Positions 26,557-34,675 are shown, counted from the stretch's first letter. The stretch: 64,000 nucleotides of DNA from an uncultured Haloferula sp. (GCA_965652295.1 CBFGTS010000001.1:448001-512000); one strand, 5' to 3'. Notes: generated from the sequence alone by a model not told the origin. Numbers and translations are program-made.

Positions 26557-26644
26557 GGAGGGGTGGCAGAGTGGTCGAATGCGCCGGTCTTGAAAACCGG
26601 AGACGGGAAACTGTCCGTGGGTTCGAATCCCACCCCCTCCGCCA
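26557..26644 (+). tRNA. tRNA-Ser (anticodon TGA)
   Basis: GGAGGGG/CCCCTCC acceptor stem, D-loop GAGTGGTCGAA, anticodon arm CCGGT-CTTGAAA-ACCGG, long variable arm, GTTCGAATC, encoded GCCA end. Confidence 0.97.
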
Positions 26645-26681
26645 CGACCCGACTCCAGCTTGCTGGAGTCGGGTCGTGGCG
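26640..26681. repeat. Perfect 20-bp inverted repeat overlapping the tRNA 3' end
   Basis: CGCCACGACCCGACTCCAGC-TT-GCTGGAGTCGGGTCGTGGCG. Confidence 0.9.
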
Positions 26682-27160
26682 TATGCGGAGGGAGGCAATC
26701 CCTCCCGGAGCGGAGCGCAGGAGGGTTTGAAAACAGGAAGCTGATGTTATCGGCGGCATTCCTCGGCGAGCATAGCGAGCGAAACCGGTTTGGTGTGAGG
26801 AGCGGCTTGTCCGCCGTAGCTCTAAGAGCGAAGGAGGAAGCGTCGCCCTGATTTCTCCCGCTCCGCCGACGACCAGTGAAGCAGAAAGATAGGCCGACAA
26901 AACGCTGGCTTGTCCTGGCATGGCCGAAATCCCTAAGTTGCGACGGCTAACAGCCGCCGCCTTTTTCTTTCCCATGCACTGGACCGAACCCGCCTCCGCC
27001 GAAGACTCGCATTCCGAACTCGAGAAACAGCTCTGGGGCGCGGCGAACCAAATGTGGGCGAATGCCGACCTCAAGCCGTCCGAGTTCTCGCCCGTCGTCC
27101 TCGGCCTAATCTTTCTGCGCTATGCCGATGTCCGCTTCGCTGCCGTGGAGGCGGATATGG

Positions 27161-27185
27161 GTAGGGACGATCGGCCCGATCGTCC
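27161..27185 (+). repeat. GTAG-type REP-like palindrome inside hsdM
   Basis: GTAG + GGACGATCG-GCC-CGATCGTCC (9-bp stem). Confidence 0.65.
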
Positions 27186-27524
27186 GACTTCCCGCCGCAG
27201 ACGCACCATCGGCCCCGCGGACTACCACGCCGCGGGGGTGATCTATTTGCCGAAGAAAGCGCGGTTCGCCTACCTGCTGTCCCTGCCCGAGGGGCTGAAT
27301 GTGGGTCATGAGATCAACGAGGCCATGCGCGCCGTCGAGAAGGAGAACCCGGACCTCGCCGACGTCCTGCCGAAGACCTACCAGATCCTCGAGAACCGCA
27401 CGCTCGCCGAGCTGCTCAAGGTCATGGCCTCCATCCCCATGGACAAGGGCGGCGACACCTTCGGCCTCATCTACGAATACTTCCTCGGCAAGTTCGCCAT
27501 GTCCGAAGGGCAGAAGGGCGGCGA

Positions 27525-27587
27525 ATGGAGCGGAGCGACATGGACGACCATAGGGAGCCCGGAGGGTTGGCGCGGGGGCGCCAATCA
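27525..27587 (+). mobile_element. 63-nt in-frame palindromic insertion 1 in hsdM
   Basis: Removal restores GAA TTC TAC (GEFYTP). AAT lies on both sides; contains GCCCGGAGGGT and a TTGGCGC/GCGCCAA hairpin, ending AATCA. Confidence 0.8.
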
Positions 27588-27686
27588 ATTCTACACGCCC
27601 ACCTCCATCGTCCGCCTCATCGTCGAGATCCTCGAGCCCTACCACGGGCGCATCTACGATCCCGCCTGCGGTTCCGGCGGCATGTT

Positions 27687-27752
27687 TGCCTCCTACCGTC
27701 GGCCATGCGGGATCCGCTTCGCGGGCAGGAGACGCGCAAGCGCGAGGGGCAT
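27687..27752 (-). mobile_element. 66-nt in-frame palindromic insertion 2 in hsdM
   Basis: Removal restores ATG TTT GTC (GGMFVQS). TTG lies on both sides; contains mini-hairpins CCGCTTCGCGG and CGCGCAAGCGCG. Confidence 0.8.
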
Positions 27753-27824
27753 TGTCCAGTCCGCCCGCTTCGTGGAGAACCACCACAAGAACCCGATCTC
27801 GGAAATCTCCTGCCACGGCCAGGA

Positions 27825-27902
27825 CAAATGGGCGTGGGGTGCCCATTTGAGACGTGCGCAGCGCGCCCGCAGGGTGAGGCAGCGGCGGAAGCTGCCGAAT
27901 CA
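27825..27902 (+). mobile_element. 78-nt in-frame palindromic insertion 3 in hsdM
   Basis: Removal restores CAG GAA CGG (GQERV). Contains a CAAATGGGC/GCCCATTTG hairpin, GCCCGCAGGGT and a GGCAGC/GCTGCC hairpin, ending AATCA. Confidence 0.8.
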
Positions 27903-28346
27903 ACGGGTCACCGAGACCAGCCGCCTCGCCCGGCTCAACCTCGCCGTCCACGGCCTCAGCGGCGACATCCGCCAGGGAAACACCTATTACGAGGACCTCC
28001 ACGACTCCGTCGGCCGCTTCGACTTCGTCCTCGCCAATCCGCCCTTCAACGTCAGCAAGATCGACAAGGAGCGCCTCGCCGACGACCCGCGCTACGCCTT
28101 CGGCCTGCCGCGCACCGACAATGGCAACTACCTCTGGATCCAGCACTTCCACGCCGCGCTGAATGCCACCGGCCGGGCCGGCTTCGTGATGGCGAACTCC
28201 GCCGCCGACGCCCGCGCCTCCGAGCAGGAGATCCGGGAAAAGCTGATCAAGAGCGGCCACGTCGACGTGATGATCTCCATCGGGCCAAAGGGAGATTCAA
28301 CTTGTCGTGTTCTCGCCGGTGCTATCCACATCGAAACCCTTAAATC

Positions 28347-31300
28347 ATGAAGATCAAAGTTCTTAATCCGGACGGAGTGCATGCCCGGGAGATTAAAGGC
28401 CTCGCAGCCCTCAAGGAAGCACTCCCCAACGAATGGTACGGGTATGCCTCTCTTGAGTTGGTCGGCGAGAACGGAGGGGAAATTGACCTCGTGATCTGCG
28501 CTGAGGATCGCCTGATTGCGGTCGAAATCAAAGATTGGAACGGAAAGATTGAAGACCTCGGTCCGTATTGGCGAACGAGCGGGCGAGAACAGAAGTCACC
28601 CGTAGTCACGATTGCGGAAAAGTCGAAGAAGCTGGCAAGTAAGCTTAAGACCTTCCTTGCGCCAGAGCATCAAGCTCCATGGGTGGACCACTGCGTGCTG
28701 CTCACCGGTAAATCGCGAAGAAATGACCTGAGCGAAGACAGCAAAGACAAGACATTTGAGCTCGAGTTTTTCAAACGGATAGGCAATAAGGAGGTCTTCC
28801 GGGAGTGCTTTACTCACGAAGCCTGGTGTCGCACGCCGATTCACGACCTTAAGCCGAAACTCGACGTGTTTTTCGCTGGACCTCGTGTTCGCCCGTTAAG
28901 TTGTTCATACAACGGGTATAAGGCAAATGATGATCCGTGCTACACTCACCCGAAGCGGATCTACTCGGAGTATTTCGCAGAAAAGGAAGGAGCCAAAGGT
29001 TTCAAAGCGCTCTTGCGCCGCTGGGACTTCCATGAGCTAGGCAACGTCGATGCAACCTACCTGAACAAAGAGAATCGGACGACTCTCGCCCTAAGGGAAG
29101 AGAATGCAATCGGCTATCTTAGAGACGCAAAGCCTGAACTCGTAGGCCGAAACGTGTTCCTTGCGCCAATCTCGAATGAAGGGCGAGAGTCGGTCACCGA
29201 AAATTTTTTCGAACTTTACGACCTGCCCCGGGACTTGAGCCGTCTGAAAGAATCTTTGCGCCGCTATGGAGACTCGCTCAAGGACGATAATCGCATTTCA
29301 ATCGCACGTCTTCTTCTCCATCACCTCTCTGAACTTCACGAGCTTGAGGTCGCCCACAGGGATATTGGCGAGCATTGCATCTGGATCAGCGTTCCCGACA
29401 AAGTTTCGCTTTCAGGCTTTGCGACCAGTTCGTTCCCCGAACAGAAAACAGTGGCTCAGATCCGAGAAACAATCCGTGGCGGAGGGGAGCGGATCCCCGA
29501 AGAGTTACTGGACCTGAAGTCCAACAATTTTCGGAAGGATGTCTTTCTCCTAGGCTCGGTCGTCCACCAAATCTTGTTCGGAACCAAGCCGAGACTTGTC
29601 GATGGGGTTCCGACGTGGCACCCGCCAACGAATGGCAAGTTCGATCAATTCTGGGGATGGTTTGATCGGGCCTTAGAGCTCGATCCTGCGAAGCGTTTCT
29701 CGAACGCAACCTCGGCATTCGACGAGTTCCAGCGGTGCAGCAAGACATCCGAGTGCTTGGAATTCGATGAGAAGGATTTCCGTGAATTTGAGAAGTCGAT
29801 TCCGCCAATGCCAAGACTACCAGGTGACACAGTCCTCAGGCAGGATTCGGGTGGCTTGGTCTTTCATTCCGAATGCGGAGGAGGAGATGCTTGTCTTAAC
29901 AAGGTTTGGCCAGATGCCAAGTTCAAGCCCGGCGCTGTGGCCGAGAACTTCCATTTGCTAAGTTTTCTGGAGCGGATCCAACGTCTACAGATGGCCGACC
30001 TAGAATGCCAACAGCGGGTCCTTGATTTCGGGATAACAAGCTTCGGTTCCTACGTCGTCCTGAAGTGGGAAGGCGGGCAATGTCTTGAGGAGTTTGAAGG
30101 GGAGAGTTTCGACGACGAGGCCGGGCTGGCTTTCGTCCGAGCTCTTGTGCAGGCGGTGGCGGATCTCCACCGATGCCAAATCTTCCATGGGGATCTCAAA
30201 CCCGGGAACATTCTCTATGCACTAGGCGAGGAAGGTGAGACGACGATCCGCCTCATCGATCTCGTGGATTTCGCACCGGCAGGAACGGAACGGCGGTCAT
30301 CCGCTTACCTTCCCCCGGAAGGTGAGGAGGCTACCACGCCTGGGTGCGACGGCTATGCGTTGAAAAAGATCGTCACCGATTTCGTCCTACCTCGCATGCC
30401 CGGAATGTCCAAAGCACTTGCGGAGCGGATCACCGCAATCTTGGGCGATATGGTGGACCCCGATGGGGGTATTCCGGATGTGAAAGGTGCTTTGGATGAG
30501 CTGGCAAACCCTTTTGATGCCGATGATGAATCCTCATCGGGATCCCGAGAAGAGCTTGTTATTTCTATGGGGGGGATTGAGAGAGAGATCCTCATGATGC
30601 CGGATGACCGGGGGCTTCCGGTTACGATTTCACGCGACCGAGACGATCCTGAAAGCTTCGTCGTCCGAGTCACTGATTCCGCTCATTGTCTGGGGCTGCT
30701 AGTCAACGCTCCGCGGAAGGCGATAACTAAGATATGGCAGCAGCCGGCGACGATCATGGATCTGGCCCAGAACCTCCGATGGAAGGCCTCCCTGCTTGAA
30801 AGGCCGCTACGTATTCTGCGGAGTCAGGCAGACGACCTCACGGCCTTAAATGAGCTTCTGGATGAGCTGGCCATCTTTTCCGAGCTGGATAAACTATATC
30901 GCAAGGAAGTACAGGCCACGCGGGAGGAAGAGACGCTAGCAAGTCAAGTCGGCCACGATTTCAATGAAGCCGGTTCAGATGAATCCGATCAGGCACCCAG
31001 CCAAACGCCTGAAACTCCGCTCGTCGATGTTCCCCTCGATCTCTTCTGGGAAGCTCTGCTTGATGCCGAGGCCAGGATCGTCCCAGTTATGGCTGTCACT
31101 GACGAACCTGTGGAAATCCGATCTTCAGGGATACTTGTTCTTCCGGTCGGAGAGCCATCAGCGCCATTCGACCCCCAAGATGATGAGCCAGTAGAAGTCC
31201 AGACACAGGATCCTGCAGGGGAGTGGCGCTACTTTGGTAATCTCGACAACCGGAGGAGCCAAAATGGGCGGCTTGCTGTGGTTCCCAAGGCCAGGGGCAC

Positions 31301-33200
31301 CTTCCGACCGCGAACGGGCACGGCACTCCGACTGGAGAACAAAGCATCACGTGCCTCGTATTTGAAGCGGCTTGCCGCAGTTCAGCGGATCGTAGGCCGG
31401 GATTCCGTGTGCCCCGAGCTTTTCGATTACTTCGGCGGGGACGGCTGCCTTGACTCTCTGCCCGGTCGCTTTGCAGGCAAGTTGGACGGGCTCGACGCAT
31501 ACGGCCTCAATCCGGTGCAAAGAGATGCGCTGGAGACAGCATTGAAATGTTCTCCCCTTGCTATGATCCAAGGCCCACCGGGTACTGGAAAGACCGGGGT
31601 TATTTCGGCTGCGGCGCACTACATCGCGACGAACTTCCCCACCGCCAAGATTCTCGTGGTCAGTCAGTCTCACGAAGCAATCGACCACGCTACTGAACAG
31701 ATCGTGAAGCGTTTTCGCAAGCAAGGCGATGAGCCTTCTCTGGTTCGTGTGGGACGGCGGGCTGCGATCAGTGACAATCTGATTTCGTTCCACTCAGAGT
31801 CCCTGCAGGGGGAGTATCGCGAACGGTTCCGGCTATCCCTTACCCAACGAATTCTACCGCTGGGCAGTCGGCTGGGATTGAGCGAGGCGTTCGCGGAAAG
31901 CCTCGCAGTGATAAGAGCGCGGTTGGTTCCGCTTCTACAGCAGCTTGGTCCAGAGCCGTCCGGAGAGGAGGCGGAAATTGATCCGGCCCTGCGACGGCAC
32001 CTTGAGAACGCATGCCGCCAACTTGACCCTGGGTTCGATTTCCCTGACGCGGCAATCGCCTCGGTTTGCGGCTTGATGGAACAACGGTTGATTGATCGCC
32101 ACGGGGAAACTGATCAACAGTCAGTCAATGCCTTGAGGAAGATCATTGATTTAGCGCTTGAGTGGGTGCAGATCCTTGAGACCCCGGGAAAGCTCGATCG
32201 ATTCTACGTAGGGTCCAGTCAGATTGTGACTGGGACCTGCGTTGGAGTGGGGCGCTGGCAGCTTGGCCTTGAAAGCGAAGCCTTCGACTGCGTGATCATC
32301 GACGAAGCGGCTAGATGCGGCCCGGGCGACCTGGCGGTTGCGAGCCAAGTGGCCCATCAGGTGATTCTCGTGGGAGACCACAAGCAACTGCCTCCGTTCC
32401 TTGAGAAGGACGTCGTGAATCGCGTTGCGAGGGACTTGCCGTGCCCTCCCTGTCAGGTCGAGCGCAGCGACTTCCAAAGGCTGTTCGAGTCGCCTTACGC
32501 TGAGTTGGCCGGTCGTACGCTGAAAACCCAGTATCGGATGAGGCAGCCCATCGGGCGGCTTGTGTCCGAGTGCTTCTATCCGGAGACAGGTGGCATTGAG
32601 GCGGGACGCAAGACGAGCTCCGAGTGCTACGACAGTCTACCGGAAAGGATTTCGCGGCACGTGACATGGATCGATTCAGAGGATGGCGGAGAGGAACGAG
32701 TTCGGACGAGCTTTGTGAATCGTTCTGAGATCGACCGGATCATGCAGGTTCTGGAGGAGATCGACCGCGATGAGGCTTTGATTGACGGCCTGATCAATGA
32801 TGCAGCTGCGGAAGGACTTCCTGCTGCGATTGGTATTATCGCCGCCTACAAGGCTCAGGCCGACGCGATCGAGGAGAGGGTCTGGCAGTCATCGCTAACT
32901 GGCAAGCTACGCCAGACCTGCAAGGTTGGCACTGTCGATAGCTATCAGGGGAAGGAGAATCCCGTGGTGATCTTCTCAGCCGTTCGATGCAATCCGCATG
33001 ATGAGATTGGATTCACGCGGAGTTGGGAGCGGGTAAATGTGTCCCTCTCAAGGGCAAGGGAGCGCTTGGTGATTGTTGGAAGCTGGAACTTTTGGGAGAG
33101 CGCCGGTGTGAAAGCCCCACTCGGCAAAGTCGTGAACTTTCTCACCGTTAGGCTCGCCGAGTCCGACGAAGGATACGCCCGCATCGCTGAACCCCTTTAA
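28347..33200 (+). CDS. NERD nuclease + two Ser/Thr kinase-like domains + SF1 (UPF1/DNA2-like) helicase; putative antiphage protein (Mokosh MkoA-like)
   Basis: EIDLV...VEIKDW (NERD); [62 protein letters not shown]; lower GC than flanks. Confidence 0.85.
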
Positions 33201-34675
33201 TGAAAATGAGTGCTTTGGAGAATTACGCGGAAGAGGAAGCGGAGTTCGTCTTCGGTTCCCGGACGATATTCATTCCCGGACGGAGTGTTGAGATCGGCTA
33301 TTCGGTAAGGAAGAAGTCAGCGTTTCCTTTGGTGGAGGAGTTGGTGCTCAAGCTCCTCAATATCGTCGGTAGCGCATCGCTGTCCGACATCGCCAAGTTT
33401 GTGGATCTGCCCGCCAAAGATCTCAGGACCGCGTTTCAGCCCCTTCTAGTCAAGGGGTTGATGATCCAGCGTGGTGATGATTTCGAACTCTCGGAGGTCG
33501 GGCGGATGCTCTTTTCGCGTTCAGATGACGACACTCCAGCCTTGACGGAATCGGAGTCGAGGGTCCACCCATTTACGATTGATGACGAGTGCGCCCTTCC
33601 CATCGTCGCACCGGATTTTAGTGAGCACCGGGCGACGGCGAAAGGGGCCTTGAAATGGCTGATCGATGACCTTAGGAAAGCCCCCAATGCTGGTGATGAC
33701 TTGCTGAGCCGCGTGCGCCGGAACTTCGGTGAGTATTTTGCGTATTTCATGCGGAATGAGGGGGACTTGGAGAAGATCAAGGAAGAGCAACTCGAGCTAC
33801 ATAAGACGGAGTATGCGAAGACTAGAAGCAGTTTTGCTGTTCCGGTGAATGTCGAAGGCGTGATCCGTAAGAACGGGCTGGTTACGAATCGAGTGCTGCC
33901 CTTAGACGAGTTCACGGCGAGACCCGAGAGCCGGATGGGGATGAGGTCCGCATTGATCGAATCCGCGAGAGTGCCCTTGGAAGATGGAGAAGCGGGTGAA
34001 ATTGAGTTCCTTCGGAGTTGCTTCGGAGAGGACTTCCTTGGTGGGATCGCGGCGAATGGCGCACTCCCGTGGTTCAAAGTGATGCCGACATTCTCCAAGG
34101 GAGATCGCACCACACTTCAGTCCGGAGGGAAAATTGCGATTGGAGAATTGAGCGTCCCAAGAAACCTGTTGCGGATCGAAGCACTTTTTCATGCGGTGAC
34201 TGAAGGAAAAGAGTTTTCTCAAGAAGCACCTCTACGAATTTCATGGTTGCGACCGCCAGTGACCTCGTGGGGAAGAAGCATTGCGTTCCTCGATGGGGTC
34301 AAGGCGCTCCGGGAGATTGGAGCGCGATTGCGAAAAGGAGCGGTTGTATTGGAGCTTTGGGAGAATCGATTTGGTTCGGAAGTCGACCTTGAACCGGAGC
34401 TCCGTTCCTATTGGCCCTGGTTTGACGATGTCCGATACTTCCGCGATTCGGAAGTCCCCAAGAGGATGGAGATGATCTTGATTGGAGAGGGAGCAGGGAT
34501 CGCCGTCACACACGCGTTCACTCCACTCCAGGCCTGCTTTCCCTGCCCAGTTGGCGTCTCCTTCTCTGAAAATGAGACGATACGAAAGCTGGTTTCGGAA
34601 AGGATCGTGCCCAATCTGCGTTCACTGCCCAAGACAGAAAAGAAGGCGAAAAAGGCTGCGAAGAAGGTCAAATAG
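33200..34675 (+). CDS. Partner of the kinase-helicase; N-terminal wHTH-like region, possible degenerate PLD-like C-terminus
   Basis: TAATG coupling to the upstream gene; EELVLKLL...SLSDIAKFVDL...L.VKGL...LSEVG wHTH-like pattern; same low-GC codon style. Confidence 0.65.
   Translation: MKMSALENYAEEEAEFVFGSRTIFIPGRSVEIGYSVRKKSAFPLVEELVLKLLNIVGSASLSDIAKFVDLPAKDLRTAFQPLLVKGLMIQRGDDFELSEVGRMLFSRSDDDTPALTESESRVHPFTIDDECALPIVAPDFSEHRATAKGALKWLIDDLRKAPNAGDDLLSRVRRNFGEYFAYFMRNEGDLEKIKEEQLELHKTEYAKTRSSFAVPVNVEGVIRKNGLVTNRVLPLDEFTARPESRMGMRSALIESARVPLEDGEAGEIEFLRSCFGEDFLGGIAANGALPWFKVMPTFSKGDRTTLQSGGKIAIGELSVPRNLLRIEALFHAVTEGKEFSQEAPLRISWLRPPVTSWGRSIAFLDGVKALREIGARLRKGAVVLELWENRFGSEVDLEPELRSYWPWFDDVRYFRDSEVPKRMEMILIGEGAGIAVTHAFTPLQACFPCPVGVSFSENETIRKLVSERIVPNLRSLPKTEKKAKKAAKKVK

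Follow-up and report, generated by a model that had tools for sequence, protein, structure and literature searches.

In-frame hairpin insertions in Type I methylase genes of Verrucomicrobiota: two candidate families of small non-autonomous mobile elements

Introduction

Rickettsia palindromic elements (RPEs) are dispersed palindromic repeats that occur in frame within genes and are read as peptide (Ogata et al. 2000, as presented in the MITE review PMC10969869). Intragenic REPs of the GTAG/CGTC kind are described as lying both between and inside genes, including those of the verrucomicrobium Opitutus terrae (Di Nocera et al. 2013, PMC3733652). According to the same account, intragenic REP dimers encode 20-30 residues and their stems include G-T pairs; the hosts that it lists are replication and repair genes, and no word beginning with 'methyl' occurs in its main text (PMC3733652). 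A further system that has to be considered is IS608, a hairpin-ended element reported to insert without duplication and in a strand-specific manner next to a short target (PMC3201880).

The locus described here lies in a stretch of 64,000 nt from an uncultured Haloferula sp. (GCA_965652295.1, CBFGTS010000001.1:448001-512000), called the window below, in which a gene for the M subunit of a Type I methylase (hsdM) carries three in-frame inserts. Defence genes turn over quickly, and we know of no small hairpin elements that colonise them from within. From sequence comparison we lean, if modestly, towards regarding inserts 1 and 3 as small mobile, non-autonomous elements that come from two related families and would be translated in frame in hsdM.

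Results

A truncated hsdM gene with three in-frame inserts

The features of the locus are collected in Table 1. An open reading frame (ORF) at 26920..28350 on the plus strand matches the Pfam domains HsdM_N and N6_Mtase (64 and 162 bits, respectively), contains the AdoMet and NPPF motifs and, when translated, runs free of stop codons through all three inserted stretches. The initial annotation of the window had proposed three stop-free, frame-preserving insertions of 63, 66 and 78 nt at this place, and the open frame, the gaps in orthologs and the empty alleles described below all bear this out. In an alignment of 17 orthologous sequences (79-87% identical), most rows have a gap of 21 residues after GGE, of 22 residues after GSGGMF and of 26 residues after HGQ, so that most orthologs lack the inserted peptides. 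Relative to the PDB structure 3khk, insert 1 coincides exactly with a gap of 21 residues that separates GG from (Q/E)-YTP. Inserts 1 and 3 each split a glutamate codon, that of GGE^FYTP and that of HGQ-E^RV, respectively (the caret marks the point of insertion); the boundary of insert 1 is ambiguous by 3 nt (AAT).

Table 1. Features at the hsdM locus, in positions counted from the first base of the window
Feature	Position	Strand	Basis
tRNA-Ser (anticodon TGA)	26557..26644	+	ARAGORN; Rfam tRNA 64.7 bits; hsdM remnant just downstream
hsdM remnant (Type I methylase M subunit)	26974..28284	+	tblastn of P0039; Pfam HsdM_N, N6_Mtase; PADLOC MTase_I
Insert 1, 63-nt family A element (subfamily A1)	27525..27587	+	alignment, empty allele, folding, covariance model
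Insert 2, orphan composite, 66 nt, after GSGGMF	27687..27752	.	alignment, empty alleles, repeat searches
Insert 3, 78-nt family B element	27825..27902	+	alignment, empty alleles, family search, folding
Junction, end of hsdM homology	28285..28346	.	G+C drop from ~0.65 to 0.52
Mokosh type I genes MkoA + MkoB	28347..34675	+	PADLOC; Pfam NERD, Pkinase, AAA_11/AAA_12

Insert 1 opens with a conserved head and hairpin 1, continues with the GCCCGGAGGG mini-hairpin and an 8-bp hairpin 2 (27566-27585), and closes with ATCA. Insert 3 begins with a 10-bp hairpin (27825-27849), which is followed by GCCCGCAGGG, a 6-bp hairpin (27878-27896) and an AATCA end. The motif GCCCGNAGGGT-hairpin-AATCA, pointed out initially as common to these two inserts, is indeed peculiar to them: a search of the 4.37-Mb genome for GCCCGNAGGGT-N10-30-AATCA found it nowhere else. 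All three inserts had been described as palindromic. DNA folding upholds this description for inserts 1 and 3, which fold better than their shuffled versions (z -2.2 and -2.4, respectively), and gives it no backing for insert 2, which does not (z 0.09 on the plus strand and -0.8 on the minus strand). Neither Pfam nor Rfam has a family matching the inserts, which encode 21-26 residues, and the inserts have no capacity for self-splicing or for coding a nuclease. Short-word BLAST detected no other copy of any of the three in the window's own genome. With a covariance model of family A, the family of insert 1, the hsdM copy was the sole hit in the genome (70 bits; 150 of the 6002 candidates were scored), and the match next in score, at 20.6 bits, was rejected as unlike a family A copy.

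Insert 2 is an orphan composite that could not be placed in a family. No full copy of it was found in 400 related genomes. Its 24-nt core is 92-96% identical to a different dispersed repeat in a sister genus, and matches elsewhere were obtained for two more pieces, 16-19 nt long. On the minus strand, insert 2 starts with ATG and ends in GCA at a CA^A step. This confirms the minus-strand CA end at an A step noted in the initial annotation, and that end is the only link between insert 2 and inserts 1 and 3. The initial interpretation is supported for two of the three inserts, 1 and 3; for these two, each test that it had named turned out in its favour.

The initial annotation had also pointed to a sequence that insert 1 has in common with an element behind the tRNA gene. 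This did not hold up beyond chance: the 11-mer in question, GGAGCGGAGCG, occurs 18 times in the genome, and the stretch is the trailer of tRNA-Ser, conserved behind a second tRNA-Ser gene, and was rejected as an element copy. Positions 26615-26803, comprising the 3' part of tRNA-Ser(TGA) and its trailer, are 79% identical over ~190 nt to C2:136253-136442 of the same genome, at tRNA-Ser(GCT). The region contains a hairpin with compensatory changes and may represent a conserved trailer or a small RNA.

The window hsdM corresponds to residues 1-360 of a 525-aa insertion-free ortholog (tblastn of P0039), and the same search, extended from the window to the whole genome, found the C-terminal 165 residues nowhere. 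Among ORFs of at least 150 aa between 35 and 48 kb, Pfam searches detected neither hsdS nor hsdR. The gene is a dead, truncated remnant, and the 3' part of its R-M locus has been replaced by Mokosh, namely by MkoA (1617 aa, 28347-33200, PADLOC 1301 bits) and MkoB (491 aa, 33200-34675, PADLOC 110 bits). The Mokosh type I system has a lower G+C content (0.51-0.59) and starts where hsdM homology stops; here, beside a tRNA-Ser gene, the 3' part of one defence system has given way to another. The window copies are fossils in a truncated gene. On the simplest reading, hsdM brought its inserts along and died later, so that they cannot serve as a switch in this window.

Filled and empty alleles

The window originates from a rhizosphere metagenome bin, and alleles were compared at the level of assembled contigs; in RNA runs, at most 0.10 of the sampled words were present. 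A contig of the probable source run (record 1, 2108 nt) has the filled form with 0 differences, and at contig level the source sample yielded no empty form. Close alleles were found in contigs of three other runs, from other metagenomes. The empty allele of insert 1 skips exactly 63 nt, with 3 mismatches in 224 nt and 0 in 70 nt of the flanks and with an ambiguity of 3 nt. For insert 3, two contigs from two runs and two studies skip 79 nt, replaced by one G, and the sequence of the empty site is CAG GAG CGG. The empty alleles of insert 2, which come from short contigs, skip 67 nt with C or 70 nt with CGTG in their place, and their sites read ATG TTC GTC/GTG CAG. One contig contains insert 2 and lacks insert 3; this pattern of alleles indicates that the three insertions were separate events and are polymorphic. 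Apart from the inserts, filled and empty alleles are 98-99% identical, and the frame is open in both. Insertion-less DNA, which the initial annotation proposed to look for, therefore exists, and both forms are supported by independent contigs: gain or loss of the inserts is precise, and natural populations contain filled as well as empty alleles.

The base next to the junction (27686/27753, 27903) differs between the two forms, TTT versus TTC at insert 2 and GAA versus GAG at insert 3. The difference fits the need for an A^A target, although with two cases it is not demonstrative. It also bears on the possibility that the inserts constitute a reversible switch, in which precise excision from DNA or removal from RNA would toggle R-M activity. 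Near-identical filled and empty alleles with clean, motif-restoring junctions are what such a switch would leave behind, and inserts at the AdoMet-binding motifs could eliminate modification as well as restriction and have no polar effects. However, differing junction bases at inserts 2 and 3 imply separate lineages and not one switching population, the contigs of the source sample include no empty form, and stretches of 63-78 nt carry no known splicing signals. We consider a switch quite improbable.

Distribution and structure of family A

A pattern made up of the head and the central motif of family A was searched in 401 genomes of the same bacterial family. It matched 61 places in 36 of the 401 genomes, and a reversed control pattern gave 1 match. 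The initial proposal of an element family presupposed further copies in related genomes; they are at hand both for insert 1 (the 61 places) and for insert 3 (6 genomes, see below). Neither a phylum-wide sample of 351 genomes from other families nor viral contigs contained a match, and among the metagenome contig matches listed there are more than 120 stretches. Per genome, the maximum is 8 matches of the pattern, or 10 matches of the 13-nt head.

Family A copies share a common architecture: after one variable base come the conserved head and a first variable hairpin, then the mini-hairpin GCCCGNAGGG, another variable hairpin and ATCA. In an alignment of 22 copies of 66 nt there is no conserved GTAG/CGTC tag, and the invariant head is a different 15-mer. 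The first 14 bases and the central motif were preset by the search pattern, so that their invariance is uninformative. In these 22 copies, the positions of the two hairpins and of the mini-hairpin are paired in 89% of alignment cells, versus 34-43% when the partners are slid. Of 16 pairs, 8 are altered on both sides, and the covariation score was reached by 0 of 500 shuffles. The consensus of the flanks is S-A^N...ATCA^A, the step that is split usually falls in a Glu codon, and the elements have neither terminal inverted repeats nor a target duplication.

Twenty of the 61 copies are located in Type I methylase genes, 16 of them according to Pfam matches of the flanking ORFs and 4 (L141 twice, L161, L163) assigned by flank identity only. 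All 19 measurable copies of this group are 63 or 66 nt long, and the twentieth is 66 nt long if its last base is taken as flank; all 20 are sense-oriented, and two reading frames are used. The 41 other copies, 64-78 nt in length, are intergenic or lie in IS66/IS4 transposase genes. Multiples of three make up 11 of 39 non-methylase copies, and one 71-nt copy divides an IS66 transposase gene into two frames, with the cut exactly at profile position 74/75. Outside methylase genes, just one of the 61 is genic and in frame, a 66-nt copy in a DUF6444 ORF. We give no test statistic for these counts, since relatedness makes the copies non-independent. Most copies of the metagenome sample represent further subtypes and lie outside genes; when 38 spanning ORFs were run against Pfam, 2 matched N6_Mtase, 4 matched IS66 and 1 matched IS4. 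Frame selection, put forward initially, is supported, copies in methylase genes all being multiples of three as opposed to 11 of 39 elsewhere. The companion claim, that the element repeatedly targets R-M genes, has to be narrowed: it holds for the 63/66-nt subfamily (20 of 61) and for family B (6 of 6) but not for the wider family A, which is mostly intergenic or associated with IS.

The surroundings of the remaining copies show some regularities of their own. IS66-family transposase genes are interrupted at profile position 73-75 at four loci (L114, L210, L216, L253), and some of the copies in IS66 genes are tandem doublets (L210, L253, L277). The family A element probably multiplies as a passenger of IS. 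Tandem family A copies occur at L127, L210 and L253. Intergenic copies are found within tandem repeats of 7-8 nt ending in GAA/CAA (L128, L142-L145, L148, L153-L155, in genomes G306, G102, G004 and G172), and the end of this repeat is the step into which the family A element inserts. A mutS gene (L173, G306:C108, minus strand, ~2276) has an in-frame stretch of ~62 nt with a family A head and a missing 3' half, flanked by a 10-nt direct repeat.

Family B and recurrent insertion sites

Near-full copies of insert 3, 87-100% identical, are present in 6 of the 401 genomes, the window's genome included. All 6 are situated in ORFs with HsdM_N and/or N6_Mtase, and in all 6 the length is a multiple of three. 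Five of them interrupt the Glu codon that follows GQ; they do so in three hsdM lineages with wholly different downstream sequences, and the sixth lies at the N-terminus of another hsdM lineage. The second hairpin occurs in three compensatory versions.

The hsdM lineages that host the elements are 26-46% identical to each other, except for lineages IV and VI, which are closer (67%). Nevertheless, the same codons are occupied repeatedly. DNA loci place elements at GE^FYT in four lineages, at GQ-E in three and at YE^Y in two; the Glu of an HsdM_N helix and the ENP site are occupied in two lineages each, the second lineage being represented by peptides of P0015. In this metagenomic ortholog (686 aa) the frame stays open across four family A peptides as well as other inserts. 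In one genome, two hsdM paralogs carry copies at the same two sites, and the first 44 nt of their GE^FYT copies are identical.

Such recurrence might be explained by homing on hsdM, whereby in-frame sublineages would be copied into empty hsdM genes at defined, conserved codons by a site-recognising nuclease acting in trans or by short-tract gene conversion between hsdM genes, instead of transposing with low specificity and then being selected. The occupation of one codon in diverged lineages (four for GE^FYT, three for GQ-E) agrees with homing, as do the two shared sites in paralogs of one genome that are 46% identical, the sense orientation of all hsdM copies (25/25), and the fact that the sole family A copy of the window's genome sits in hsdM. 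Insert 3 and its counterpart in G134 match at 76 of 78 positions (97%), in hosts whose surrounding hsdM DNA is 78-79% identical, which is again what homing would produce. On the other hand, no nuclease is tied to the elements, and flanks shared between lineages extend over only 8-11 nt, mostly on one side. DUF559 cassettes do occur in the same hsdM family, but at other sites and with other repeats, and relatives of the elements enter intergenic DNA and IS genes, with S-A^A as the only common target. Homing is the main rival of the explanation that we prefer, a filter for permissive sites acting on mobile R-M cassettes, and we take it to be unlikely, if far from negligible.

The in-frame inserts of this hsdM family also comprise hairpin units of 19-43 residues, rich in proline and glycine, and whole DUF559 (PF04480 + PF18741) nuclease cassettes that such units bracket (P0003, P0017; L038 4807-5255; L085; L013, L105).

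Could the inserts instead have piled up in dead or dispensable hsdM genes, with frame and position being meaningless? The window hsdM is truncated and is followed by no hsdS or hsdR, many of the element-bearing hsdM loci are fragments or recombinants, several with recombinant junctions, and the other hosts of the elements are IS transposase genes and spacers, all of which would suit accumulation after gene death. Yet every measurable copy in hsdM is a multiple of three (19/19 in family A, 6/6 in family B) and every one is in sense orientation, whereas the frame is random elsewhere. Full-length element-bearing hsdM genes followed by an intact hsdS are found in G134 and G237, and the close similarity of empty and filled alleles, with the frame open in both, likewise points away from dead genes. 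Accumulation after death is, in our judgement, improbable.

Some junctions at these loci are chimeric, joining the left flank of one hsdM site, the element and the right flank of another site (L161 788-885; L112; L141; L124; L125). They suggest deletion or rearrangement by recombination between element copies.

The encoded peptides might also be retained for their own sake, as a selected protein module whose loops bring a benefit such as an altered interaction with phage anti-restriction proteins. From copy to copy the peptide remains recognisable, and insertion recreates a motif-like end (GGA-N/H/Y-Q) before FYTP or YFLG. Against a benefit to the protein, the same DNA is read in a second frame in other hsdM copies (NGAERH... 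versus WSGAT...) and occurs in non-coding DNA as well, and the constraint that is visible is base pairing; the data show the opposite of a conserved peptide whose synonymous positions vary freely. A selected module is very improbable.

Search for a mobilising enzyme

The family A head motif alone, searched in 5 copy-rich genomes and 7 regions, led to no autonomous element; the matches obtained were rejected as mutated copies, chance hits or, in the case of mutS, a partial head. No tnpA/tnpB element with cognate ends was found with this motif in the 5 copy-rich genomes. Genome G000 has 12 matches to Y1_Tnp, and the flanks of these 12 places have only words of 9-12 nt in common with the inserts. 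Three intact Y1 genes are flanked by inverted hairpins that include the CCCCGNAGGGG mini-hairpin, of the GNA-loop kind. Around the Y1 genes of G000 and G172, the element ends are absent and the flanking hairpin repeats are different, and the only Y1 gene that adjoins a copy has other flanking repeats. The initial annotation had proposed looking for a co-occurring RAYT/HUH or other transposase, and none could be tied to the elements in these genomes. Y1 domain matches were also seen in open frames of 1514, 917 and 1198 aa (G000 C3:252502-252711, C17:82645-82812 and C17:91668-91922, respectively).

Discussion

Family membership, polymorphism, the rule of frame and orientation, covariation in the hairpins and the repeated use of sites are established by the data. 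According to the explanation that we prefer, elements of 63-78 nt, with the architecture described above in both families, would insert at S-A^A steps, always in the same orientation and without duplication. The 63/66-nt sublineage of family A and the 78-nt family B, stop-free in the frames used, would reside almost only in hsdM, where they would split Glu codons beside conserved motifs and be read through as Gly/Arg/Pro-rich loops of 21-26 residues. They would have moved between hsdM lineages that are 26-46% identical, and their peptides may be tolerated by a working enzyme. Movement might proceed through single-stranded DNA mobilised in trans by a Y1/HUH transposase, as in IS200/IS605 or RAYT systems. 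Hairpin ends without inverted repeats, the fixed orientation and the short target, as in IS608, point in this direction, and so do the tandem copies, the abundance of Y1_Tnp genes and the GNA-loop mini-hairpins that flank Y1 genes. The restriction to hsdM could result from the horizontal mobility of R-M cassettes combined with a filter that leaves few permissive sites.

Several observations sit uneasily with this explanation. A target as short as S-A^A accounts neither for the concentration of nearly all in-frame copies in hsdM nor for the occupation of the same codon in four diverged lineages. Compensatory variation of the stems is unusual for a transposon burst, although template-switch correction of palindromes could explain it. 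Neither an autonomous copy nor a transposase with these ends was found in the genomes searched, and copy numbers are low. A second structure model places two of the sites, those of insert 2 and of YE^YF, in predicted helices. The structure models, however, have low confidence (mean pLDDT of 42 for the window protein and 62 for the insertion-free ortholog, whose catalytic domain is modelled with low confidence and with pLDDT <50 at the sites) and were not used as evidence. A selfish lineage specialised on Type I methyltransferase genes, which would seek out conserved Glu codons at the AdoMet-binding motifs, jump between hsdM lineages with a quarter to a half of their residues in common, persist through being translated and perhaps be precisely excisable, might act as a homing parasite or as an in-frame on/off device for R-M; we put this reading forward tentatively and regard it as doubtful.

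Should the enzymes with inserts retain their activity, these elements would supply a well-studied enzyme with new surface loops; should they be inactive, the elements would silence restriction without polar effects. Filled and empty alleles represent ready-made controls, and the elements themselves offer a compact substrate for finding the enzyme that moves hairpin repeats in this phylum.

The features of the two families recall several known systems, and none of these matches them in full. PATEs are gene-less derivatives of IS200/IS605-type elements. Elements of the IS200/IS605 type resemble families A and B in having subterminal hairpins at both ends, neither terminal inverted repeats nor duplication, and a fixed orientation. 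A short adjacent target and seamless empty sites may be further common traits: the empty allele of insert 1 is an exact skip of 63 nt with an ambiguity of 3 nt, and at inserts 2 and 3 one junction base differs. The hairpins without inverted repeats are evident from covariation and folding and from ends that are not complementary; the right end, moreover, resembles TCAA, and tandem copies are present. The differences are that no TnpA/TnpB with these ends was found, that no pairing between a guide and the cleavage site is evident, and that the target consists of S-A^A only. Strictly defined MITEs have terminal inverted repeats and a target-site duplication, and the elements have neither.

REPs are likewise short hairpin repeats that occur in intergenic regions and, in frame, within genes, with G-T pairs in the stems and dimer peptides of 20-30 residues. 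In contrast to REPs, the elements described here have no GTAG/CGTC tag, and each unit consists of two different hairpins and a 20-nt head instead of a single hairpin or an inverted dimer. Repeats flanking a RAYT gene in inverted orientation, which characterise REPs/REPINs, were not found with the element ends in G000 and G172, and the CCCCGNAGGGG mini-hairpin alone is shared in kind. Inteins and homing introns are similar with respect to location: they, too, sit in the most highly conserved motifs of a gene that moves horizontally, and at the same site across very diverged homologs. Unlike them, the elements are far too short for splicing or for coding a nuclease, and the insert stays in the ORF.

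With RPEs, the elements have in common a dispersed palindromic family, in-frame copies that are read through and the lack of a known linked transposase. RPEs, compared here by their description, are ~150 bp long and occupy many unrelated genes of Rickettsia, whereas the present elements measure 63-78 nt and belong to Verrucomicrobiota; their in-frame copies are not spread over many unrelated host genes but are confined to Type I methylase genes, at recurrent Glu codons. In open-access papers and preprints, we found no description of palindromic in-frame elements confined to hsdM. In-frame intragenic repeats themselves are known; what appears to be undescribed is that such repeats are restricted to hsdM and recur there at identical sites. 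Beyond the Rickettsia case, the present one features a single lineage confined to one gene family, the same conserved codons occupied in diverged versions of that gene, and natural filled and empty alleles.
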